DNA of 24,317 bases. Source: Kofleriaceae bacterium. Its GTDB lineage: Bacteria; Myxococcota_A; Polyangia; Haliangiales; Haliangiaceae. The stretch is taken from assembly GCA_033763475.1 (NCBI GenBank), contig JANRKM010000012.1, positions 1-24,317 of the forward strand, in the 5' to 3' direction. Every line of letters begins with the position of its first letter. Position 1 is the stretch's first letter. Positions 1,081-23,986 of this stretch are shown here, in pieces. Position numbers and translations under genes: made by a program. The notes beneath the pieces were generated by a model that saw only the letters and a list, made by a program, of their open reading frames with translations, made no database searches and was not told the DNA's origin.

Positions 1081-1137
1081 GCCGCGACGGGCTGCAACCG
1101 ATGGACCATCGAGGCTTCGCGGGGTTGCGCGTGAAGC

Positions 1138-2136
1138 GTGCTGCGCATGGCGCGAACTAACGGGCGATTTTCAACGCGGTGCGGAGCTCGTGGTAACCGC
1201 GAGACGCCGTTCTTGCGCGTGGAGAACAACCAGGTGACGGATCTCGTCGAGGTCGAGACGCTCGATCACGTGTTCGTGCAGCTGCGGCTGTCGTATCGCG
1301 TGGACTTCGAGGGTGACCCGCTGCGGTGGTTCAACGTCGAGAACCACGTGAAGTTCCTGTGCGACCACGTGCGCTCGGTGCTGAAGGGCAAGATCCGGAA
1401 GGTGGCGATCGAGGCGTTCTATGCGTGCTCGACCGACCGCATCCGCGATCTGATCCTCGGCGTCCCGGCGGATGGTAAGCGCCCGGGGCTGCCGTTCCCC
1501 AACGGCATGCGCATCGTCGATGTCGACGTCCTCCTCGACGAGGCGCTGCTCGACCAGAGCCAGCACGAGGTCGTGCGCTCGAACATCGCGATGTCGAACC
1601 TCGGGCGCGAGCTCGCGGTGACCAAGCAGCGCGAGGCCATCGCGCGCGAGACCGCCGAGGTGAAGGCTCTCACGGCCGTTCGCCACGACGAGCTCTCGCG
1701 CGAGCTGGCCGCGAGCGAGCTCGCCACCGTGCTCGCGAAGCTGACCAACACGTTGCGCGAGACCGACGAGCGCAAGAAGGTCGTGGAGGCGGAGCAGACG
1801 ATCGAGGTCATCAAGCTGGAGAAGCGACTCGAGCGCGTGAAGCGCGAGCGCGAGCAGGAGCTGACGTTCTTCTCGCGCGAGCAGGACAAGCGCATCGAGC
1901 TGCTGCGGGCCGAGGCCGAGACCGCCGTCCAGCGGTTCACGGCAGCGTCGGGCAACTTCAGCGAGGCGCTGCTCCAGCTCGGCCGGCACGAGACGCTGGT
2001 CAAGGTCGCGCAGGGGTGGGGTGTGCAGCGGGTGATCGAGGGCGAGTCGCTCGGCGATACGCTGTCGCGGTTGTTCAACCACACGCTGCTCAAGCCGCTC
2101 GTTGACAAGCTCACGCTTGGCGATGAGACGGACTAA
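1138..2136 (+). CDS. SPFH (band-7 / flotillin / vault-shoulder-like) domain protein with a long C-terminal coiled coil
   Basis: The segment HVRSVLKGKIRKVAIEAFYACSTDRIRDLILG...MRIVDVDVL matches the C-terminal half of SPFH domains. It is followed by about 150 aa of heptad-like E/R/K/A-rich sequence. The N-terminal beta-strands of a full SPFH domain appear to be absent. Exact start is uncertain. Confidence 0.4.
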   Translation: MLRMARTNGRFSTRCGARGNRETPFLRVENNQVTDLVEVETLDHVFVQLRLSYRVDFEGDPLRWFNVENHVKFLCDHVRSVLKGKIRKVAIEAFYACSTDRIRDLILGVPADGKRPGLPFPNGMRIVDVDVLLDEALLDQSQHEVVRSNIAMSNLGRELAVTKQREAIARETAEVKALTAVRHDELSRELAASELATVLAKLTNTLRETDERKKVVEAEQTIEVIKLEKRLERVKREREQELTFFSREQDKRIELLRAEAETAVQRFTAASGNFSEALLQLGRHETLVKVAQGWGVQRVIEGESLGDTLSRLFNHTLLKPLVDKLTLGDETD

Positions 2137-6488: not shown

Positions 6489-6516
6489 ACAGCGCGGTCA
6501 ATTGCGCGCTGTCGCG
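6489..6516 (+). terminator. Perfect 10-bp GC-rich hairpin (CGACAGCGCG-gtcaatt-CGCGCTGTCG), 24 nt after the stop of the 5494..6465 gene. Terminator-like, but with no U-tract.
   Basis: Inverted repeat read directly. Its position is immediately 3' of a plus-strand gene. Confidence 0.3.
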
Positions 6517-6637
6517 GGCTTGGGCTTCGATCAGGCAATGGTAATAGGCGTTGTTGGTCTCGGCATCGGGCCGGGAGGCGCGCGGTTGCGCTCGCGATGA
6601 CCCTCATGCCGATGCAATGTCTAGAGGTTGCGTCGCT

Positions 6638-6692
6638 GCGTGTCCGTGCTCCGGACGCGATGTCCGGATGCCGGACGGACAGTCCGTCGACC
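6638..6692. repeat. Copy B of the palindromic GTCCGG/CCGGAC repeat. Contains TGTCCGG-atg-CCGGACG and CGGAC-a-GTCCG. It lies in a convergent intergenic region.
   Basis: Aligns with 5..62 (24-nt identical core). It sits between the 3' ends of the 5494..6465 (+) and 6842..7384 (−) genes. Confidence 0.7.
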
Positions 6693-6841
6693 CTGCGTGG
6701 TGAGGCGGCCGAAGCACCTCGCGCAGCACGTCCAAGCTCGGCGTATGCCAGCACGCGTGAAGCGCATAAGTGAAACTATGCGCCCTTGTTGCGCATCGGT
6801 CTCTGGCGCGAGACGCCATCGGCGTGACGAAAACACTACGC

Positions 6842-7384
6842 CTACGGGCTATCCATCATCCGCAGCAGCGCCGTCGTCGTGTTCCAGTTCCGGATCGTCA
6901 TCTGCTTGTAGACGGGGAGCGCCGCCACCTTGCCCATCCGGCTCTGCGTGCGTTTCGCCTCGAGCCGCGCGTAGTACAGCACCCCGCGTCCGGGCCACAC
7001 CTGGTCGACGCCGTCCTTGCGCGGCATCATCTCGGCCACCGCAGCCCCCGAGAGCGGCGGCATCAGGAACAGCACGTCATAGCGGTACTTCGCCGCCTGC
7101 GTGCCGAACCCCTCCGGCGCCTTGTCCACGATCGTGCGCATTTCGGACAGTGACCGCACGACCAGCGTCGCCTCGTACGCGAACGTCTTGGCGAGCATGG
7201 CCGCGATCTTCGTCAGGACGACGGCTTCTTTCGCGGCCGCCGAGAACACCACGTTGCCGCTCTGGATGTACGTGCCCACGTCGGTGAAGCCCTGCTTCTC
7301 GAAGCAGGCCTTCAGGTCCGTCATCTTGATCACGTTGTTGCCGCCGACATTGATGCCGCGCAGCAAGGCCACGTACCGCACCAT
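6842..7384 (-). CDS. DUF1697 family protein
   Basis: MVRYVALLRGINVGGNNVIKMTDLKACFEKQGFTDVGTYIQSGNVVF is the canonical DUF1697 N-terminal signature. The ORF is clean, at 180 aa. Its start codon is 2 nt after the stop of the upstream gene, so the two are translationally coupled. Confidence 0.8.
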   Translation of the reverse strand: MVRYVALLRGINVGGNNVIKMTDLKACFEKQGFTDVGTYIQSGNVVFSAAAKEAVVLTKIAAMLAKTFAYEATLVVRSLSEMRTIVDKAPEGFGTQAAKYRYDVLFLMPPLSGAAVAEMMPRKDGVDQVWPGRGVLYYARLEAKRTQSRMGKVAALPVYKQMTIRNWNTTTALLRMMDSP

Positions 7385-7386
7385 CG

Positions 7387-7735
7387 TTAGCGGTTCCGCT
7401 GGTGCAAGATGATCGAGTTTCCTTCGCTATCGAGGATGATGTCGCCCAGGAAGCGCACGCCCGCTGCCTGCAGCCGCCCAGGGGTGGCATCGAGGTCGCT
7501 CACCTGCCGTTCGGCGCCGCCAGCCCGCGCGTGAAGCCGAGCAGATCCATCGTAGAAGTTGCGCGCACGCTTCGGGTCCTCGACCTCGAACATCGTGAAC
7601 GCGACCTTCTGGAACTCTGGCTTCTTGGCCTTCGCCGGCTTGGCCTTCGCTCTCGGGGTGGCCTTCTTCGCGACCGCCTTGGTTTTGGGCTTCACCGCCT
7701 TCGCCCTCGTTACCTTCATCGCCATGCGAGGGGTG
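7387..7735 (-). CDS. Fusion of a histone-H1-like K/A/P-rich N-terminal region with a short VOC (glyoxalase/bleomycin-resistance-like) module. Track ORF 7387..8232; the start was chosen at MAMKV (7735).
   Basis: MAMKVTRAKAVKPKTKAVAKKATPRAKAKPAKAKKPEF is an H1/AlgP-like tail. It is followed by FTMFEVEDPKRARNFYDG...VSDLDATPGRLQAAGVRFLGDIILDSEGNSIIL, which carries the beta1-alpha1 and C-terminal DPxGN-like motifs of VOC domains. The part of the track ORF upstream of 7735 is antisense to the CdnL-like gene and was rejected. Confidence 0.5.
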
Positions 7736-7878
7736 ATACCACTCGAGGCGTGGAGCCCTTGGTCAAACCGGTGGTCTGTGCGTGTGGAGATCGCGCATTC
7801 GCGGTGCGCATCGCGTAGCAACGTCAACGCTTCGATCGCGGTGGCGAGGATCGCCGCCACGTCCGAGATGCGATATGG

Positions 7879-8817
7879 ATGGCCATGCTTCAGGTCGGTC
7901 AAGCCGTCGTGGTTCGAGGTCGTGGGCTCGGCACCGTCGCGAGTGTTCGCGATGACGCGATCATCGTTGCCGAACAGGATCTCGAACCGGGCGAGGAGAG
8001 CCAGTTCGAGATCCCGGTGGAACGTGCTGGCGACGCAATCCGCGCCGTCGCGACGCCGGGGGAAGCCGAGCGCGCGCTCGCGCTCATTGCGACGCGGCCC
8101 GAGCGCTTGCCCGCCGACGAACGCAGCATCGCGTATCGTCGTGCGTTCAAGCGCGGCGACCTCGACGAACAAGCGCGCATGCTCGCGGCGATGTATCGCG
8201 GTCCGGCCGAAACACCGGAGCGGCAGTACCAAGATCTCATTGAGCGAAGCGTTTTTGGCGAGCTGGCCCTCGTGCTCAACACTTCACGGAAAGCGCTGCG
8301 CGCACGGATTCGTGCGGCGGCCCTCGGGGAACCTCCACCCCGCTCACTAGGACTCGCCGATCGCGGGAACGAACTCGCGGCGGTCACGGTTCCGCCGATC
8401 GATGGCTTTGATGCGATCGGCGCGTTCGCGGTCGACGCGAAAATCGGGGTTGGCGAAGCGAATGCGGACGTCGTTCTACCGGCTGAACCTGGCATCTGGC
8501 TTGCGTATGCTGTGCGTGACGAGGACGCCGATGATTTTTCCGAGCTTGTGGCCGTCCACGTGACGCGGATCGGCGAGTTCGCAGAACTTCGTCGACGTGC
8601 GAAGAAAGCGGGCAAGGCTCCGTTCGAGGGCGCGCACATGTCGATCTTCGACGAAGCTGTCGTCGATGACCGCGAAGTTGTCGACCGTATGCTTCAAGCT
8701 GACTGCGAGATCGTTGATGGGCGTAGCGCGTCGCTCGGGCTCGGCGGCGACGGCATCGCAGAGGTTCGAGTTGCGCGCGATGGCGACCGCGCGATCTGCG
8801 TCCGTGTTCTCCTCTGA
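7879..8817 (+). CDS. CarD/CdnL/TRCF-family RNA-polymerase-interacting protein (a divergent CdnL paralogue) with an extra ~150-aa C-terminal domain, tentatively DUF4241-like
   Basis: The N-terminal ~160 aa align with CdnL. LQVGQAVVVRGRGLGTV matches FKTGDKAVYPGQGVGEV. RLPADERSIAYRRAFKRGDLDEQARMLAAMY matches TWNRRYREYMEKIKTGSVFEIAEVLRDLY. PERQYQDLIERSVFGELALVL matches the CdnL C-terminal helix. The C-terminal part (DGFDAIGAFAVD...GLGGDGIAEVRVARDGDRAICVRVLL) is an additional domain. Confidence 0.6.
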   Translation: MAMLQVGQAVVVRGRGLGTVASVRDDAIIVAEQDLEPGEESQFEIPVERAGDAIRAVATPGEAERALALIATRPERLPADERSIAYRRAFKRGDLDEQARMLAAMYRGPAETPERQYQDLIERSVFGELALVLNTSRKALRARIRAAALGEPPPRSLGLADRGNELAAVTVPPIDGFDAIGAFAVDAKIGVGEANADVVLPAEPGIWLAYAVRDEDADDFSELVAVHVTRIGEFAELRRRAKKAGKAPFEGAHMSIFDEAVVDDREVVDRMLQADCEIVDGRSASLGLGGDGIAEVRVARDGDRAICVRVLL

Positions 8818-16480: not shown

Positions 16481-17509
16481 TCAACGTGGGTTGGCGACGC
16501 TGGCGATGAAGAGGCGCGCGCCGTTCACCCCGGGTAGCTCGAGCTCCTGGGGCTGCGGTCCTTCGGTCATCAGCTGGGAGAGGCGGTTCGTCAGGGGCTC
16601 GATCGCCTCCGGCGGTAGGAAGATCACCGCGCCGCGCATTCCTTCTCGCTTCTCGATCGACCACCCGGCCGGGCCGGGGCGGAAGCAGACGAGCGAATCG
16701 CCGCTGCGTGGTCCTCCGAACAGAACCATCTCCTCGCCGTGACGGACGCGGTGCTTGATTGCCATCAGCAGATCGGGGATGCAGGCTAGGTCGACGTGGA
16801 TGTCCAGCCGCTTGCCCCGGACCAGCCCCCCGTGCACCTCCCAATGCAGCGGAAGCTGGCCGCGCATACCGACCGACGCCGCTCTGCTCGCCATCGCTCG
16901 CTCCATGTCGACGAGGAAGCTCGCGTCGGCGAGGAAGCTGGGGCGTCCCGCGATCGTCTGCAGCAGCGGATCGCGCGCCCTCATCAGGTCGGAGAACGCG
17001 AGCACGTCCCATGATCGCGCCGTGTCGTGTTCGGCCACGTTCACGCCGACCATCTGCAGGTAGCCATGGTTGCCGTTGCGGGATCGGGTGGGGGCGAGCC
17101 CGACGTCCTCCACGAAGAGCACGTTGCAGATTTCATCGCGGGTAGCCGGCGCGACCAGCGGCATGCAATGCCCGGAACCGATGAAGGTCTCGGTCGTCGC
17201 CAGGTAATCGCGGATGCCTTGCATCCAGTGGAGCACCCATCCGAAGTCGAGCTGCGCCTCGACGGCGGGGATCCGACAGCTGAGCTCGAAGCCGAAGCCG
17301 GACACGTCGGGGTCGTCGGACTCCTTGTCCCAGAGCTCGGTGAAGCCCTGGCTGACCACCAGCCAGTGCGGGCTCGGCGCGCTCACGTGGACCGCCACCG
17401 CGCCGTTTAACGGCTCGGCCCCCTCGACCGGCGCGCACAAGACGATCTCCGCGCCCGGGTGCGCGGCGCGCACGCTGTTCTCCAGGGCGTCGAAGGGGTC
17501 CACGGTCAT
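16481..17509 (-). CDS. SUFU (suppressor-of-fused) family protein, bacterial type. These are frequently immunity proteins of polymorphic toxin systems.
   Basis: HVSAPSPHWLVVSQGFTELWDKESDDPDVSGFGFELSCRIP…WVLHWMQGIRDYL matches the bacterial SUFU core (HYVTYGLSELY.KESDDPE.SGFGFELTFRL…LARYVF). It is a clean 342-aa ORF with good GC3. Confidence 0.6.
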   Translation of the reverse strand: MTVDPFDALENSVRAAHPGAEIVLCAPVEGAEPLNGAVAVHVSAPSPHWLVVSQGFTELWDKESDDPDVSGFGFELSCRIPAVEAQLDFGWVLHWMQGIRDYLATTETFIGSGHCMPLVAPATRDEICNVLFVEDVGLAPTRSRNGNHGYLQMVGVNVAEHDTARSWDVLAFSDLMRARDPLLQTIAGRPSFLADASFLVDMERAMASRAASVGMRGQLPLHWEVHGGLVRGKRLDIHVDLACIPDLLMAIKHRVRHGEEMVLFGGPRSGDSLVCFRPGPAGWSIEKREGMRGAVIFLPPEAIEPLTNRLSQLMTEGPQPQELELPGVNGARLFIASVANPR

Positions 17510-18781: not shown

Positions 18782-19807
18782 CTACGGCGTCGGCGGCTTC
18801 GACGGGTCGACGGTAAACGTGCCGATGTCCGTCGTCTTGCCCGCCTCGAGCGCGAGCCCTTTCATCAACGCGGGCGACGGCTGCGTCAGCACCACGAGCA
18901 CCGATGGGCCGGCCTTGGTCTCGATGCGGAATGAACCATCCGCGTTGGACATCGGCGGCATCCCCTCGAGAGAGATCCGCGTGCCGCCATCGGGGGTCGC
19001 GGGGATCACGATCACGCCGGTGTCGCCGAGCGGTTTGCCCTGCGCGTCGACGAGCTTGCCCACCACCACGGCGTTGGCGACGAGCACGATGTCGCGCTTC
19101 GCCGCCTGCCCCGCGACCACGGTGACCTTGGCCTCGGCGTTGCCGTCGCTGGAGCGCACGCGCAGCGTGTAGTCACCCGGATCGACGCGGCCGAGCTTGA
19201 AGGTGCCGCCGGTGAACGTGCGCGTCGTCTTCGTCGGGCCTTCGACGTCCAGCGTGAACAGCGCGACCGGCCCCTGGGCTCCGGTGACCGTGCCCGACAG
19301 CGACGTGACGCCCACGGCCTGGATCGCGAGCTTCGCGTCGGGCTCGACGCCGAGCTTGCGCCCACGCAGCGCGCCCTGTTGCGCCTCGGCGATCACCTCG
19401 TACTTCGCGTGCGGCAGGTTGCGCACCGCGAACCGGCCCTGCGCATCGGTGAGCACCGGCGGAAATTCACCGCCCTCGCTGCCCTCACCGTCGTCGCTCG
19501 TCGTGACGTGCGTCATCCGCGACGAGGACTTCTGCTCGCCATCCTTCTTCGCCCTCTGCTCCGCGGCTTCCTCTTCCTCGACCATGCCGCGGAGGAGCGC
19601 CTCGAGATCCTGATGCACGGAGACCCAGGCGTCGGCGAGCGGCTGTCCGTCGGGGCCGGTCACCACACCTTCGATCACGCCATTCGGAAGATCGTTCCTT
19701 AAGGATAAGACGAACAAGACCGCTTTCGGGCCGCGAGCGGTTCGCCACGGGGAGCGTCCTGGTGGCAGATCGCTCGTCACCGATGCCACGAACGTCATGC
19801 AGCTCAC
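18782..19807 (-). CDS. Protein with three carboxypeptidase-regulatory-like (CarbopepD_reg_2 / transthyretin-like) domains and an acidic insert. The start is uncertain and no signal peptide is seen.
   Basis: Repeated motifs GVVTGPDGQPLADAWVSV…TDAQGRFAVRNLPHAKYEV, GTVTGAQGPVA…GDYTLRV and GKLVDAQGKPLGDTGVIV…SNADGSFRIE. The insert is EEEEAAEQRAKKDGEQKSSS. There is a low-GC patch (19690–19730) inside the annotated 5' end. Confidence 0.55.
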   Translation of the reverse strand: MSCMTFVASVTSDLPPGRSPWRTARGPKAVLFVLSLRNDLPNGVIEGVVTGPDGQPLADAWVSVHQDLEALLRGMVEEEEAAEQRAKKDGEQKSSSRMTHVTTSDDGEGSEGGEFPPVLTDAQGRFAVRNLPHAKYEVIAEAQQGALRGRKLGVEPDAKLAIQAVGVTSLSGTVTGAQGPVALFTLDVEGPTKTTRTFTGGTFKLGRVDPGDYTLRVRSSDGNAEAKVTVVAGQAAKRDIVLVANAVVVGKLVDAQGKPLGDTGVIVIPATPDGGTRISLEGMPPMSNADGSFRIETKAGPSVLVVLTQPSPALMKGLALEAGKTTDIGTFTVDPSKPPTP

Positions 19808-19880
19808 GCTGCGTGCAGTCGTTCGTGCGGCGTCGCGCAGACCCGTCCGCTCGTCGAGCGGCGGTTGGCTCGGAGGCGCG

Positions 19881-20114
19881 TCAGCATCCCAGGTCGAGCT
19901 CGCCCTGCGCGGGCTCGGGTGGCGCGCGGGCCGCGGCGAGCCGTGGAGGGTCGGAGCGGATCCCGAGGTGCTCGAGGATGGCGGTGGTGACGGTCGGGGC
20001 GGTCAGGAAGGCCAGGACGCGGAGCTGATCGTCGCAGCGCGGACAGCGAGTGACGTCGTCACCGAACACGCGGCGCAGCAGGGCTGCCCAGTCGAGGCGG
20101 TAGGCTGGGCGCAC
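19881..20114 (-). pseudogene. C-terminal zinc-ribbon fragment of a transposase (IS family not determined). It is a remnant of only 77 codons.
   Basis: DWAALLRRVFGDDVTRCPRCDDQLRVLAFLTAPTVTTAILEHLGI matches the conserved C-terminal tail found on many bacterial transposases (…LLRRVF.VDVL.CP.CGGRMR…I..IL.HLGL). No catalytic domain is present upstream. Confidence 0.4.
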
Positions 20115-20248
20115 AACACGAGCACGGGACGCGCGCGAACGTATAGTGGGAAGTCGTCGAACAGGTTTGGCGTCACCTGCGCAGTATCCTTCGCGCTCCG
20201 CCCCGAGACGCCTGCGGCCTAGCCGAAAGTCGCAACGACGGACAAGCT

Positions 20249-20620
20249 GTGCGCGTCAGGATCGGTTGGGATGGTTCCGCCAATGCTCTGGCGTTCGCGA
20301 CCGACAATTTGCTGCAGTCATCCGAGAGCGTTCACGACATGGACATGCTCCATGACTTCATGTGGCTGGTGCGCACGGCCGGCGCTCTCAAGGTCGTCGT
20401 GCACGGTTTCAGTACCCCGGGCTTCATCAAGCCCGCCGAAGCCGATCAGTATCTCGCGTCCGTGTTGCAGGCCAGCGGCAGCGCACCGGACTCACACGGC
20501 AGCGAGTCGCTGGCAAACCTCGAAGGCCTCACCGACCGCCAGATGTTGCGCTCGGCTATCGCGCACGCGTCGACGGACATCAGATCGTCCTCCACTTCTC
20601 TCGCCCACTCCACGATGTGA
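20249..20620 (+). CDS. Hypothetical small protein in a lower-GC island. GTG start, 123 aa, family not recognised.
   Basis: GC3 of about 75% in this frame, with a clean stop. Local GC is lower than the flanks, consistent with foreign DNA. Confidence 0.25.
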   Translation: MRVRIGWDGSANALAFATDNLLQSSESVHDMDMLHDFMWLVRTAGALKVVVHGFSTPGFIKPAEADQYLASVLQASGSAPDSHGSESLANLEGLTDRQMLRSAIAHASTDIRSSSTSLAHSTM

Positions 20621-20735
20621 CGTTTACGCACACGGTGACAGTGTGACCTGGCTCGGCGTGCAGGCACAGCTATCTCTCTCGGTCCGGGCCCGCCGCTCGC
20701 AACTCGACACCGAGCTGGCCGATGTGCTGGCGCGG

Positions 20736-21056
20736 CTACCTACCGGTCATCGTGCGGAACCGACGCCACGCTCGACGCCACGGACGAGCCCAAACATAGA
20801 CGCGCAAGTAGTGCTCGATCGGAAAGCCCGTACCGCTGATCCAGAGATGGCCATCGACGCGGTCAACGAACAACGGTGCATTGCCGATCAGGCCGTGGTC
20901 GCGGTCACCAGTCTCGACGAACTGGCGCGTGTTGTAGAAAAATACCCAGCCCCACCGTCGTTCGATCGTATGTCGGTCGACGATCACGACGTCATGTGTG
21001 CTTGTAGCGCGCAAGTGGCTCTCAGCGATGAAACGCGCCTCGTCGTGAGTCAGCAT
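20736..21056 (-). CDS. Imm35 / YrhB-family immunity protein, an orphan immunity gene of polymorphic toxin systems. The track ORF 20736..21779 was trimmed to start at MLTHDE.
   Basis: MLTHDEARFIAESHL…DVVIVDRHTIERRWGWVFFYNTRQFVETGDRDHGLIGNAPLFVDRVDGHLWISGTGFPIEHYLRVY matches YrhB/Imm35 hallmarks (GWVFFY…; LAGNAPIIVDK.DG…TGTA.P.E.Y). The region has lower GC. The upstream part of the track ORF is Arg-rich and antisense to the integrase remnant. Confidence 0.7.
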   Translation of the reverse strand: MLTHDEARFIAESHLRATSTHDVVIVDRHTIERRWGWVFFYNTRQFVETGDRDHGLIGNAPLFVDRVDGHLWISGTGFPIEHYLRVYVWARPWRRAWRRFRTMTGR

Positions 21057-21339
21057 GGCGTCGACGACTATACTCTGCGCGCGGGCGCGACTCGGCTCGC
21101 GGCTTCGTGCTCGTGGAAACGGTTGCGACGCTTCTCGGGGCCAGCGTCGAGGAGAGCCCGGCACGCGAAAGCGGATAAGCGAATCGATGGATCGCGAGGC
21201 GCTGGTCCGCGTGCACACCGGTCCCGGTTCGTGGTGGCTGTCGAGCCACAAGACCATGCGCCGAGGTCGCGCGTCGATGCGCGAGGCCAAGCTGAGATAT
21301 CCGAGGTTTCGGGTGCCGATCGGCGACTCGAGGGATCCG

Positions 21340-22117
21340 GAGGCCTGAATTTCTGGGGAACGATTTTTCCCTCGACGGTGCCTTTCCGCATCCGCGGCCG
21401 CACGCGTGATCCGAAGACGCGCGAACGGCGCGAGGTGAACCGCGCGCTCCCTGACTGCAAGCGCGCAAGCGAGGCCGCGGCGATCGCGCGTGCCGAGCTT
21501 GCGAAGATCGCTGCGGGCGAGGCGCCCGTGCAGACGTCTGCACTGCGGTTCGCGGACTGGGCCGTAACCGTCCTCGAGCGCAAGCTCGCGATCGGCGCGA
21601 TCGTCAGCGCCGCGGGCCACGCGAAGTGGGATTGGGCGCTGCGCGTGCACCTGATTCCGGCGTTCGGTCAGATCCTTGTCGACAAGCTCACACGCGCCGA
21701 GCTCGTTGCGCCCGCTGCGCGCGCGGCGAGCTCGCGGATGTGAAGTGGGATGACGGCCTGTTGCTCGTGCGGCGCTCACACACGCACCGTAACGAGGTGA
21801 TGGACGAGACCAAGACCGGACGCGACCAGGTGATCGCGCTCGACCAGCGCCAGCTCGAGATCCTGCGCTGGCATGTCGCCGAGCTCGAGCGCGACAACGC
21901 GCGGCGGGCGAAGCGCCACCCCGCGGCCGCGGAGACGATGGCGGCGAGCGAGCTGCTGTTTCCGGCGATGCCTACGAAGTGGAACCACGGGGGCGGCTTC
22001 CGGTCGCCCTCGTGTCTCGAACGTGCGTTCCAGGCCGTCTCCGCGGCGCTGGGGCTCGCGTACGAGGTGACCCCTCGGGCGATGCGTCGGACCTACCGCA
22101 GCGCTCGCGAAAAGTGA
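21340..22117 (+). pseudogene. P4-like tyrosine recombinase (integrase) remnant. The N-terminal DUF4102 / SAM-like part is in frame 0 (to 21743). The catalytic-domain piece is in frame 2 (21700–22117). There is a ~400-nt internal deletion, and the terminal Tyr region is missing.
   Basis: The N-terminal part reads GLNFWGTIFPSTVPFRIRGRT…RASEAAAIARAELAKIAAGEAP then FADWAVTVLERKL…HLIPAFGQILVDKLTRAELV. The catalytic piece reads ELADVKWDDGLLLVRRSHTHRNEVMDETKTGRDQVIALDQRQLEILRWH…ELLFP…EVTPRAMRRTYRSA (R…K…[HxxR]-like), with a stop before the catalytic Tyr. The combined length is about 780 nt, against about 1200 nt for an intact gene. Confidence 0.55.
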
Positions 22118-22186
22118 CCCGCCTCTGCTCGTCGAAAATGACCCACCGAGCTTCGGTGGAGTACGTCGGCGATCGTCGCGGGCGTT

Positions 22187-22651
22187 GTGCAGAAGAAGCG
22201 CCCGTGTTCGATCTGCGGTTGCTGGTTCTCGACTGACGTTCGCGTAGGTCAGCGCCAGCGCACCTGTGGGAGCGACGCGTGTCAGCGCGAGTTGCATCGT
22301 CGAGCAGATCGACGGTGGCGCGCCAAGAATCCCAGTTACGACAGAGAGCGCCGCATGGGCGCGCAGCTCGAGAAGGCGCGAGCGGCAGCTACGGCGAAGG
22401 CGGCGGGGCTGCCGGTCGATAGCGCCGCAGTGCCGCCGTCACCGCATGCACCTGCGCCGACCTCCGGATTGCCCTGGGACCTCGTGCAAGACGAGATGGG
22501 GGTGGAAGCTCGTGTAATCATTTCGGGAGTGACGGGAGTTCTCGGGGTGTACGTGCAAGATGAGATACGTCGTCAAGTCCGCGATGTTGTTCCGGGAGTA
22601 GCGGGAGTTCTCGGCGGTAGCGCGCAAGACGAGATGGCCCCGGGAGGGTAG
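22187..22651 (+). CDS. Possible small Zn-ribbon protein (RPCSICGCWF…RTCGSDACQRELHRR). Its C-terminal half is encoded by 69-bp tandem repeats. The coding status is uncertain.
   Basis: GTG-start ORF with four Cys arranged CxxC…CxxxxC. The repeat-encoded peptide is VQDE(M/I)…GV(T/A)GVLG(V/G). GC is reduced across the repeats. The call is weak. Confidence 0.25.
   Translation: MQKKRPCSICGCWFSTDVRVGQRQRTCGSDACQRELHRRADRRWRAKNPSYDRERRMGAQLEKARAAATAKAAGLPVDSAAVPPSPHAPAPTSGLPWDLVQDEMGVEARVIISGVTGVLGVYVQDEIRRQVRDVVPGVAGVLGGSAQDEMAPGG
22483..22651 (+). repeat. About 2.45 copies of a 69-bp tandem direct repeat. The unit is cgtgcaagaYgagat…YcgggagtRRcgggagttctcggSgg.
   Basis: Unit 1 is 22483–22551, unit 2 is 22552–22620 and the partial unit 3 is 22621–22651. 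About 70% identity between full units, with conserved motif blocks at both ends. Confidence 0.6.
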
Positions 22652-23194
22652 AGGCAGCAGCGTGGCGGCGTGGAGATCGATCTGCATCAGCTCGCGTCGA
22701 CCTTGGCGCGCATGAGGTCCTTCGCGTAGCGGAGGACGATGTCGTCGTAAGGCTGGTTGTCGAGACGGCTTTACCACTCTCGCGAGGTCCCTCCTGTGTT
22801 CACGGTCGGAGAGACCGTGTCGAAGCGCACCTTCAAGGAGGACAAGCTCGCCAAGATCTACGACGCGGAGAGGTCACTTTCGCCGCTCTGGTCGCGGCAC
22901 TTCGGGCGGACGCTGCTCCGGGACCTCGTCATTCCGCCGCAGGCGATGGTGCTCGACACCACGTGGAATCGGAGACCGGCGTGCGCGTGGGCAACGGTCA
23001 GGTAACGCTGAGCTACCGGCCGTAGCTCAACCTCCAGCGCTCGCCTGGCTTGAAGCGATGGCGCGGAGCAAGCGCAGGAACGCCGGGTAGCGGCGCAGTG
23101 ATGATATGCCGCGACGACCGTCACCTCCGGAAGCGCGCAGACTCTGCGCGAACGAAGACGCGTGTGCTCGTCGCTGGCATGCCATGATCGACGC

Positions 23195-23986
23195 ATGCGC
23201 TCGGGAACTATGCTCGCGTCGGTCGCACTTCTGTCCCTCGTCGGTGGCCACGTCGGGGCCCAGGCGCCCAAGCCCGACTCCGCCAAGCCCGCCGCGCGCA
23301 AGGCCCAGGCCCCCATGCTCCCCAGGGCACCCGCACCGCCGAAGACGCTCCCGCGCGACGAGCTGCAGCGCATGCACATGCACGAGAACTTCGATCTCCT
23401 GCGCGCGATCGAGCGACTGTTGATCGTGGGCAAGCTCGAAGACGCCAAGCGGTTCGCGGCCGCGATCTCGGAGGCGCCTGATGCCCCGGCGCACGGGCCG
23501 TGGGCCGCGCACGTGGTCGCCGTGCGGGACCAGGCGGCCGCGCTCGCGCGCGCGACGACGGTCGACGAGGCGCTGAAGCTGGAGGCCTCGCTCGCCGCGG
23601 CGTGCGCCAGCTGCCACCTAGAGACCGGCGTCGCACCCGAGTTCCGCGTGTTCCCGGAGCCGCCCGACGCGCCGACCGTCGAGGCGCGGATGCTGCGCCA
23701 CCGGTGGGCCGCCGATCGCATGTGGGAGGGCATCATGGGCGGCGCCGACGAGCCGTGGCGCGCAGGCCTCGACGTGCTGGCGTCCGCGCCGCTCGACTGG
23801 GGACCCTCGTCCGCCGACCGGACCGCGCACGCGCGCAACCTGCAGCGGCTGGCCAGTCAGGCGCGGACGCAGAAGCACGCTACGACCAAGACGCGCGCGA
23901 CGGCGTACGGCGAGATCCTGACGACCTGCGCGGCGTGCCACACGGCCCAGCCGGCGGCGCGCGCCGGCTCCGTGCCGCGTCGGTGA
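23195..23986 (+). CDS. Secreted dihaem c-type cytochrome with two CXXCH motifs (CASCH, CAACH). The architecture is a tandem of class-II (cytochrome c′/c556-like) modules.
   Basis: MRSGTMLASVALLSLVGGHVGAQA gives a signal peptide. The track ORF begins at GTG 23162. There are two ~110-aa helical modules, each ending in a CXXCH. The antisense ORFs are Arg-rich noise. Confidence 0.5.
   Translation: MRSGTMLASVALLSLVGGHVGAQAPKPDSAKPAARKAQAPMLPRAPAPPKTLPRDELQRMHMHENFDLLRAIERLLIVGKLEDAKRFAAAISEAPDAPAHGPWAAHVVAVRDQAAALARATTVDEALKLEASLAAACASCHLETGVAPEFRVFPEPPDAPTVEARMLRHRWAADRMWEGIMGGADEPWRAGLDVLASAPLDWGPSSADRTAHARNLQRLASQARTQKHATTKTRATAYGEILTTCAACHTAQPAARAGSVPRR

Follow-up and report, generated by a model that had tools for sequence, protein, structure and literature searches.

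An orphan Imm35-family gene among remnants of several mobile elements in a Kofleriaceae contig

Did an Imm35-family gene that lies amid broken mobile DNA arrive as cargo of one integrative element, now decayed, or does it stand among the leftovers of several elements? The window analyzed here (24,317 bp) is a complete contig of a Kofleriaceae MAG from a soil metagenome assembly. A first-pass annotation had interpreted positions 19881–22660 as a single decayed integrative element with an orphan immunity gene. The region is instead everyday genomic debris, derived from at least three unrelated mobile elements, namely an IS91-family element, a tyrosine-integrase element, and an IS21-family element, with a truncated host gene adjoining. 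We consider it probable that the whole interval from 19694 to ~23100 is a graveyard of mobile DNA holding several elements in pieces, not one island. Since no transposase or integrase in the segment keeps its catalytic domain, nothing there is able to move by itself. As a genomic feature the finding is routine, for large myxobacterial genomes often contain decayed integrases, IS fragments, and immunity genes that lack a toxin.

Left edge and composition of the mosaic

The left edge of the mosaic is the 3' third of a gene for a CarboxypepD_reg-repeat protein (18782–19693, minus strand). Its orthologs in two MAGs, one of Haliangiales and one of Kofleriaceae (L004, L005), are approximately 887 aa long and align over residues ~593–886 only, to window positions 19693–18785, and the N-terminal ~595 codons were found nowhere in the contig. 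A search of genome contigs with the left-flank protein returned just two distant MAGs (55–59% identity, no synteny), and these two nearest relatives share with the contig just the CarboxypepD gene. The boundaries of an island, which were to be drawn by comparison with relatives, could not be defined from two such MAGs; the comparison exposed the truncated flanking gene instead.

This gene directly abuts a remnant of an IS91-family element (19703–20114, minus strand), consisting of the terminal 412 nt, i.e., the last 77 codons of tnpA (19881–20114, stop included) and 178 nt downstream. The remnant is 97.3% identical over 412 nt to the end of a related element (L095), and two further copies (L096, L097) gave the same result. 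The coding part aligns with the final 64 positions of NF052416, the ISCR/IS91 model (E = 9.5e-8), and shares 98.7% amino acid identity with residues 369–445 of an intact, 445-aa IS91-family transposase (P0282). The domains Zn_Tnp_IS91 (residues 15–93) and Y2_Tnp (residues 138–339) of this transposase are both missing from the window, as are all its other parts. Thus, the fragment and the 3' ends of intact IS91/ISCR rolling-circle elements share 97–98% identity, but it keeps only codons 369–445 and the downstream end, the catalytic domain being lost, and it is a remnant of a family member, not a functional member. The transposase C-terminal fragment reported earlier is therefore real and of the IS91 family, but 19881 does not hold as its left limit, since the remnant reaches 19703. 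In the mechanical call of ORF 18782–19807, the first ~35 codons are IS91-derived and the start lies within the IS sequence.

The IS91 remnant is cut inside tnpA (codon ~368) and then joined to a 1.26-kb block (20115–21372), which holds an ORFan and the Imm35 gene and whose DNA has no match among the PLSDB plasmids. The ORFan (ORF20249, hypothetical protein SFX73_00645; 20249–20620, plus strand) is convergent with the Imm35 gene. Its own record is its only database match, it has no Pfam, NCBIfam, PHROG, or PADLOC match, and its AlphaFold single-sequence model is uninformative (pLDDT 39.7).

A lower-GC patch is present here, as noticed at first, but it is modest: the 500-nt windows between 20001 and 21250 have 62–65% GC, compared with the contig mean of 68%, and in 1.5-kb windows the dip (z = −1.9) only equals a value also reached at 6501–8000. 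The proposed check for compositional atypicality gave a divided answer. Codon composition is atypical for the Imm35 gene (59.8% GC, GC3 0.71), which lies below all host-like gene segments of the contig, and for the IS-borne Zn-ribbon gene described below, the only one with a lower GC3 (0.66), but the tetranucleotide distance of the region is unremarkable (z = 0.6). Host genes of the contig have GC3 values of 0.80–0.92; the integrase fragments are host-like (70% GC, GC3 0.84–0.89), and ORF20249 has a GC3 of 0.81.

The Imm35 gene and its missing toxin

The Imm35/YrhB-family gene (20736–21056, minus strand, 106 aa) is the sole recognizable intact non-IS gene of the segment. Family membership was judged by a profile score above the curated threshold together with the conserved W and [ST] residues. 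The product matches PF15567 over profile positions 1–83 of 85 (E = 2.2e-17, 63.4 bits against a cut-off of 27.5) and keeps all 21 columns that are invariant among its homologs, including W37, T30, T49, and T76, in full agreement with the initial identification. At NCBI it is named “YrhB domain-containing protein [Kofleriaceae bacterium]”; PGAP calls it as 173 aa, extending to 21257, with an over-extended start. Together with the ORF start in IS-derived DNA, this over-long YrhB call advises caution with the automatic annotation of the contig. A sigma-70-like promoter was not found for the gene by a promoter scan, which is weak for Myxococcota.

No toxin partner accompanies the gene, again as initially observed. 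Pfam searches of six-frame pieces covering 20003–21583, PADLOC, and tblastn with the toxin and Rhs end of a related locus (L093) were all negative, and the scanned ORFs of the contig contain no toxin domain. The position typical of Imm35 genes, directly after a co-oriented Tox-PL1/Ntox40 toxin gene, is not occupied in the contig. As the contig lacks a toxin, its Imm35 gene is an orphan. In L093, a homolog 44–48% identical to the contig's Imm35 lies immediately 3' of an Rhs toxin gene, whose product ends in a Tox-PL1 (PF15644) glutamine-deamidase domain. This arrangement agrees with the Imm35–Tox-PL1 association reported by Zhang et al. (2012; PMC3482391), and it supports both the immunity role of the contig's gene and its orphan status. 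The case for immunity is thus made by family membership and the gene neighborhood of one homolog. By analogy with that homolog, the protein would bind and neutralize a Tox-PL1-type toxin and, if expressed, could protect against such toxins from neighboring bacteria.

Compared with the Rhs/Tox-PL1–Imm35 pairs, the contig has the same immunity subfamily, with the invariant residues kept, but lacks the toxin gene and the Rhs sequence. The gene may be what is left, namely the immunity half, of an Rhs/polymorphic-toxin cassette that lost its toxin part by deletion, independently of the integrase. Such an origin is suggested by the homologs in L093 and L094, both of which begin at the stop of the Rhs-linked Tox-PL1 gene, and by the deletions that are rampant across the segment. 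It nevertheless seems rather doubtful, as searches upstream of the gene and in the rest of the contig detected no remnant of an Rhs core, of a PxxxxDPxGL-type junction, or of a Tox-PL1 domain.

An unlikely alternative is that the gene encodes a YrhB-like housekeeping or stress protein rather than an immunity protein. E. coli yrhB stands alone, and its product has been reported to be chaperone-like; likewise, no toxin lies near the contig's gene or near its closest homolog (L006). However, the foreign codon composition of the gene and its setting among mobile-element debris speak against a housekeeping role, as does the same-subfamily homolog found in the canonical immunity position after Rhs-Tox-PL1, and the Imm35 family itself was defined through its toxin neighborhood (Zhang et al., 2012; PMC3482391).

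An immunity gene remains the preferred reading, and known orphan immunity genes and loci offer a comparison. Polyimmunity loci (PMC3482391) and AID/rAID systems (bioRxiv 10.1101/471110) likewise combine toxin-less immunity genes on acquired DNA with a nearby tyrosine recombinase. In contrast to these, the contig has a single gene, not an array, and no flanking repeats, and its recombinase is a dead prophage-type integrase, with a breakpoint between integrase and Imm35. There is no tandem series of co-oriented immunity genes set apart by short spacers, the neighbor ORF20249 being convergent and unassigned; the only other immunity-type gene of the contig, SUFU (16481–17509), is 3.2 kb off behind unrelated genes. 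An rAID-like recombinase with an immunity array was accordingly ruled out. An orphan Imm35 gene is now documented in Kofleriaceae, and since its cognate toxin class, the Rhs-borne Tox-PL1 glutamine deamidases, can be named from the homolog, a testable cross-protection pair is available.

The integrase pseudogene and the single-island question

The integrase is represented by an N-terminal fragment without a start (21373–21704, plus strand) and a fragment of the C-terminal domain (21691–22099, plus strand). Residues 35–137 of the intact homologs (430–445 aa, best E = 4.6e-89) align to 21384–21704 in frame +3, and residues 262–388 to 21719–22099 in frame +2. The family HMM recovers positions 30–137 (E = 2e-43) and 258–384 (E = 6e-65), as well as a 13-residue scrap (positions 248–260) in the third frame at ~21691–21729. 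Positions 138–247 and 385–439 are gone, the latter having no match anywhere in the window. The gaps in the homolog alignment and in the HMM match imply that ~110–124 codons (330–370 nt) were lost internally, so that the split across two frames with an internal loss, as first described, is borne out, with the scrap in a third frame added to it. The absence of the catalytic Tyr was likewise seen correctly: the last ~55 codons, with the family motif GH..Y (H407, Y416), are missing. The family consensus places the first catalytic Arg (TGLRPS) and the GH..RHY motif, which bears the Tyr nucleophile, within the stretches that are gone, and no frame of the remnant, which is spread over three, contains the complete R..(H)xxR..H..Y catalytic set. 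A candidate for the C-terminus at 20199–20294 on the minus strand, a weak tblastn match (E = 0.01), was rejected, as the family HMM did not reproduce it.

Membership in the tyrosine recombinases follows from homology (phrog_1, E = 3.6e-27 for an intact homolog; PF00589, 34 bits in P0072). The label of a P4-type integrase, in contrast, has to be withdrawn, because none of the five intact homologs contains a DUF4102/Arm-DNA-bind_3 domain, and their PF00589 matches are weak and, in the closest ones, sub-threshold. No member of the integrase family was found in IMG/VR.

The intact relatives lie in integrative elements, and in two of them (L001 and L002) the integrase is the last gene before a tRNA-Val. 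Like the tRNA-targeting tyrosine integrases of prophages and integrative elements, the P4 type included, the remnant belongs to a tyrosine recombinase family, in its case one whose chromosomal members adjoin tRNA-Val, but it lacks the Tyr, the His, the first Arg, an att site, and a tRNA. ARAGORN detected no tRNA gene in the window, Rfam gave no match, blastn queries with the L001 and L002 tRNA-Val genes recovered no fragment, and att-like flanking direct repeats did not exceed chance, which upholds the original remark that neither an att site nor a tRNA was visible.

These data bear on the original proposal that one integrative element bore Imm35 as cargo, the IS fragments being later insertions into that island. 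In its favor, the Imm35 gene would lie on the element-body side of the integrase, judging by the gene order in L001 and L002; its low GC3 is compatible with prophage “moron” cargo, and recombinases adjoining immunity loci have been noted (Zhang et al., 2012; PMC3482391). On the other hand, the remnant lacks its own first ~30 codons: DNA similarity to L002 begins at 21373, homology to relatives in general starts at 21373–21384, and the N-terminal motif W..RW.D.IA...PGVWRR.DGG is not present. With its 5' end lost, the integrase is separated from Imm35 by a breakpoint plus ~320 nt of DNA that has no assignment. Furthermore, none of the five intact integrase loci has a homolog of Imm35 or ORF20249, in all five the integrase and its immediate upstream neighbor point the same way, the Imm35 subfamily was not found in the viral contigs of IMG/VR, and the locus has no att site or tRNA of its own. 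Breakpoint, composition, and comparison with relatives all argue against the arrival of Imm35 with the integrase element, and, with pieces of at least three elements in the segment, the single-element reading appears even less probable than a housekeeping role of the gene.

The IS21-family end and a probable order of events

The mosaic of several elements continues to the right of the integrase with the left end of a four-gene IS21-family element (22097–22694, plus strand), a separate element that had gone unrecognized and to which 22097–22660, previously counted as part of the integrative element, belongs. Its left inverted repeat (~22097–22145) contains two GA(A/G)AAnTGACCC repeats, end alignment of related elements places the terminus at 22094–22100, and the right end of one relative (L026) matches 22144–22098 inverted at 87% identity. 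One relative (L009) is 96.3% identical over 22127–22694, and all relatives cease matching at 22694. The Zn-ribbon gene (22187–22651) is intact and includes a 69-nt coding repeat of ~2.3 copies (22470–22640), which corresponds to a (V/A)QDE protein repeat conserved across the family; its product has no plasmid match. The ParB-like gene breaks off after codon 8 (22670–22694), and istA and istB are both absent from the window.

The relatives share with the IS21 family an IstA-like protein (full-length NF033546 alignment, 126–140 bits, below the cut-off of 160), IstB (224 bits against an NCBIfam cut-off of 200), inverted repeats of 45–58 nt with the motifs, and target-site duplications (TCTCG, 5 bp, in L014; TTCACGT, 7 bp, in L045). 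Unlike typical IS21 elements, they have two extra conserved genes before istA, encoding a Cys4-type Zn-ribbon protein and a CTPase-type ParB homolog, and total ~4.1 kb. The order ZnR-ParB-IstA-IstB is kept in 34 of 41 loci. In comparison with the intact relatives, the window retains only the first ~600 bp and the left repeat, the right end being gone. We tentatively regard 22097–22694 as a truncated member of an IS21-family lineage with four genes, in which the Zn-ribbon and ParB genes are integral and of which no description was found.

Between the IS21 breakpoint and a host-like cytochrome-type gene lies a short ORF (22751–23005, plus strand, GC3 0.85), which may be a gene fragment. It has no Pfam, NCBIfam, PHROG, or PADLOC match, and its sole plasmid match has E = 0.3. 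Its likeness to the N-terminus of a SAM-dependent methyltransferase, an impression by eye, found no support from any tool.

The integrase homology ends at most 3 nt from where the left inverted repeat of the IS21-family element begins. Judging from the junction positions alone, an integrative element with a Myxococcota-type integrase, whose intact kin lie at element ends beside tRNA-Val, would have stood first, and the IS21-family element would then have struck in or beside integrase codon ~388. Later deletions, some of them probably IS-mediated, would have left little of the three elements and would have removed part of the host gene along with any att site or tRNA. That some or all junctions are instead mis-assemblies at multi-copy IS, with the decay partly artefactual, is the least probable of the alternatives: the contig stems from a MAG, near-identical copies (96–98%) of both IS types occur in other samples, and many related contigs end at IS ends, but the breakpoints fall inside the IS copies (tnpA codon ~368, ParB codon 8) and not at the repeat boundaries where assemblers switch, the internal deletion and frameshifts of the integrase are not tied to any repeat, and six independent truncations within 3.4 kb are improbable as artefacts.

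Of the by-products of the analysis, the most interesting is this widespread IS21-family variant with its ParB-like and zinc-ribbon genes, which may deserve a study of its own. If the pair acts in transposition or its control, it would constitute a new accessory module for a DDE/AAA+ transposon. The Zn-ribbon family comprises 613 relatives, and the variant is abundant in soil and sediment metagenomes.

Composition and left edge of the segment

The window is a complete contig of a Kofleriaceae (Myxococcota) MAG (24,317 bp, with the sequence stopping at both window ends) and has a GC content of about 68%; a database protein with 100% identity establishes this origin. The segment between 19881 and 22660, described in the first-pass annotation as one decayed integrative element carrying an orphan Imm35/YrhB gene, is best read as remnants of three or more unrelated mobile elements lying end to end, together with two further blocks, a mosaic that would have been produced by insertion and repeated deletion. 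The single-element reading conflicts with this mixture and with the missing 5' end of the integrase gene beside Imm35. Given this missing end and the ~320 nt of unassigned DNA between the integrase and Imm35, the adjacency of the two genes is probably secondary. The source is a metagenome assembly, which is the main caveat on the junctions; nonetheless, a chimeric assembly is disfavoured, since the breakpoints fall within the IS copies and not at the element ends, and since the lesions of the integrase are independent of repeats.

The NCBI annotation of the contig includes a 'YrhB domain-containing protein' and 'hypothetical protein SFX73_00640/00645'. Real ORFs were judged by third-codon-position GC (GC3), which ranges between 0.80 and 0.92 for ordinary genes of the contig. 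The lower-GC patch noticed at first reading does exist (62-65% in 500-nt windows) but is modest: 1.5-kb windows over the dip give z=-1.9, a value equalled elsewhere in the contig, and tetranucleotide usage is unremarkable. Neither the IS91- nor the IS21-family fragment keeps a transposase.

At the left edge, the minus-strand fragment 19881-20114 covers the final 64 positions of the ISCR/IS91 model and, at 98.7% identity, corresponds to residues 369-445 of an intact transposase of the IS91 family that has both Zn_Tnp_IS91 and Y2_Tnp domains, confirming the transposase C-terminal fragment reported earlier. Three intact IS91-family copies (L095-L097) are 97-98% identical to the window DNA between 20114 and 19703, i.e., over the tnpA tail and 178 nt downstream. 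In one of them (L095), the 3' terminal region carries a ~200-nt tandem duplication (1822-2018 and 2033-2230, 79% identity), both copies of which are matched by the window remnant. The IS91-derived match overlaps the first ~35 codons of a mechanical ORF (18782-19807, minus strand), apparent start included; called as a gene from 19807, this ORF would give a chimeric product, because its start is IS91-derived. This CarboxypepD_reg ORF has orthologs in two MAGs (one Haliangiales, one Kofleriaceae), membrane-anchored proteins of ~887 aa, of which the window keeps the C-terminal third (residues ~593-886, at 19693-18785), the other ~595 codons being found nowhere in the contig. The mosaic therefore starts at a truncated host gene and not at a clean insertion site.

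The integrase remnant and its relatives

The joined integrase fragments matched 144 proteins (best E=4.6e-89, 60-73% identity), nearly all of them 430-445 aa long. By tblastn and the family HMM, HMM positions 30-137 are located at 21384-21704 (frame +3) and positions 258-384 at 21719-22099 (frame +2), with a scrap of 13 residues (HMM 248-260) in the third frame; positions 1-29, 138-247, and 385-439 have no match in the window. Judged by the family consensus, the first catalytic Arg was lost with these parts, as was the GH..RHY motif that contains the Tyr nucleophile. The earlier view of a decayed, frame-split integrase lacking the catalytic Tyr holds: the gene is a pseudogene, whose product cannot have been active since the catalytic residues were lost. 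The label 'P4-type' is unsupported, since the closest intact homologs lack the DUF4102/Arm-DNA-bind_3 domain and score only below the threshold for PF00589; these homologs match PHROG integrase families.

In two long chromosomal contigs, an inserted block ends with the integrase gene, beyond which lies a tRNA-Val gene whose 3' end faces the integrase; one of these blocks contains phage capsid and Mu gp45 genes, the other DnaB and HNH. Three more integrase loci show elements of the DnaB type, with no tRNA. In all five loci, the gene upstream of the integrase has the same orientation as the integrase itself, and homologs of Imm35 and of the ORFan at 20249-20620 (plus strand) are absent from each of them. 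The integrase family had no match in IMG/VR with the patterns used. As the first-pass annotation had stated for tRNAs, none is present in the window, and neither an Rfam family nor a fragment of tRNA-Val was detected. Two contigs with the same integrase (L090 and L091) share a gene set that looks circularly permuted, DnaB opening one contig and closing the other, a pattern suggestive of a circular or tandem element form of ~20 kb. A further PF00589 integrase, unrelated to the first, lies at the end of L090.

The Imm35 gene and its toxin-associated homologs

The Imm35 gene (PF15567; 20736-21056, minus strand; E=2.2e-17, 63.4 bits, cut-off 27.5) is as clear as first claimed, being intact and keeping all columns invariant among nine homologs. 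Its GC content (59.8%) and GC3 (0.71) are lower than in every host-like gene segment of the contig, which is consistent with foreign origin and contrasts with the host-like integrase fragments. The YrhB/Imm35 protein in its database version has 173 aa (20736-21257, minus strand) and the homologs have 91-109 aa; the domain begins at ATG 21056, and a start called too far upstream probably accounts for the preceding 67-residue Arg/Ser/Pro-rich extension. The final ~18 residues (WARPWRRAWRRFRTMTGR) resemble no homolog.

The absence of a toxin partner was also borne out: no toxin, Rhs core, or other toxin domain was found in any frame beside Imm35 or in the scanned contig ORFs. The closest homolog (P0122, locus L006) is surrounded by fragments of genes and transposases, also without a toxin. 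Another homolog, P0125 (44-48% identity to the window protein), begins where a 220-aa ORF has its stop codon; this ORF contains a PF15644 Gln_amidase (Tox-PL1) domain (E=8.6e-11) and in locus L093 is preceded by a 1,609-aa Rhs/YD-shell protein. The complete module of Rhs/YD-shell, Tox-PL1 glutamine deamidase, and Imm35 occupies L093 559-6294 (assembly GCA_044224185.1), and its order is repeated in L094. Imm35 was previously linked to Tox-PL1 and Ntox40 toxins, and a protease inhibitor role was proposed (Zhang et al., 2012, PMC3482391). The order in L093 is the canonical toxin-immunity arrangement and thus supports the immunity reading for this Imm35 subfamily. By homology, the window protein is a putative orphan immunity protein against Rhs-type Tox-PL1 toxins, and the L093 module provides a ready cognate pair for cross-protection tests. 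The orphan-immunity idea is established for polyimmunity loci (PMC3482391) and AID clusters (bioRxiv 10.1101/471110). The window locus has none of the array-type features and adds an unremarkable new case to phenomena that are already known. The contig also encodes a 342-aa SUFU protein (16481-17509, minus strand; PF05076, E=1.6e-17), 3.2 kb from Imm35, whose strand it shares, and without a recognised toxin as neighbour; this family is also classed as immunity proteins (Imm-SuFu).

The IS21-family left end

The right third of the segment, not recognised in the first-pass annotation as IS21-family, contains an intact Zn-ribbon gene (22187-22651). It belongs to a large family without a Pfam model (613 relatives at E<=0.001), in which the Cys4 zinc ribbon is invariant and (V/A)QDE motifs are repeated; these motifs account for a 69-nt tandem repeat at 22470-22640. 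Metagenome contigs show this gene at the head of a set of four genes with a shared orientation, followed by a ParB homolog (HTH_ParB; PDB ParB matches at E~6e-4), an IstA-like transposase (full-length NF033546 alignment, but at 126-140 bits, below the cut-off of 160), and IstB (NF038214, 224 bits, above the cut-off). In 64 of 70 loci, the next gene is the ParB-like one, and all four genes are present in 34 of the 41 loci with enough downstream sequence. Many contigs are ~4 kb long and start 100-270 nt ahead of the Zn-ribbon gene, a pattern expected of a repeated element. A complete copy measures ~4.1 kb and has inverted repeats of 45-58 nt that each contain two GAGAAnTGACCC motifs; target duplications are TCTCG in L014 and TTCACGT in L045.

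The left inverted repeat of the window copy aligns at 22094-22145, and the right end of the L026 copy matches 22144-22098 in inverted orientation. Since integrase homology ends at 22099, the integrase truncation and the IS end are one junction. On the other side, the L009 copy (96.3% identical) and all other relatives lose similarity precisely at 22694, after the first eight codons of the ParB-like gene. This four-gene lineage, very common in soil and sediment metagenomes (e.g., L013-L018, L022, L026, and L045), is the most interesting by-product of the analysis; neither a description of the lineage nor a paper linking a ParB-like gene to IS21 elements was found in the searchable literature, and its novelty is uncertain, as ISfinder lay outside the search. 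Elsewhere in the contig, a host-like ORF (23195-23986, plus strand; GC3 0.92) encodes a secreted protein with two CxxCH haem-binding motifs and only sub-threshold matches to cytochrome c families, and the ORF 1135-2136 (plus strand) contains a major-vault-protein 'shoulder' domain (PF11978, E=1.4e-20).
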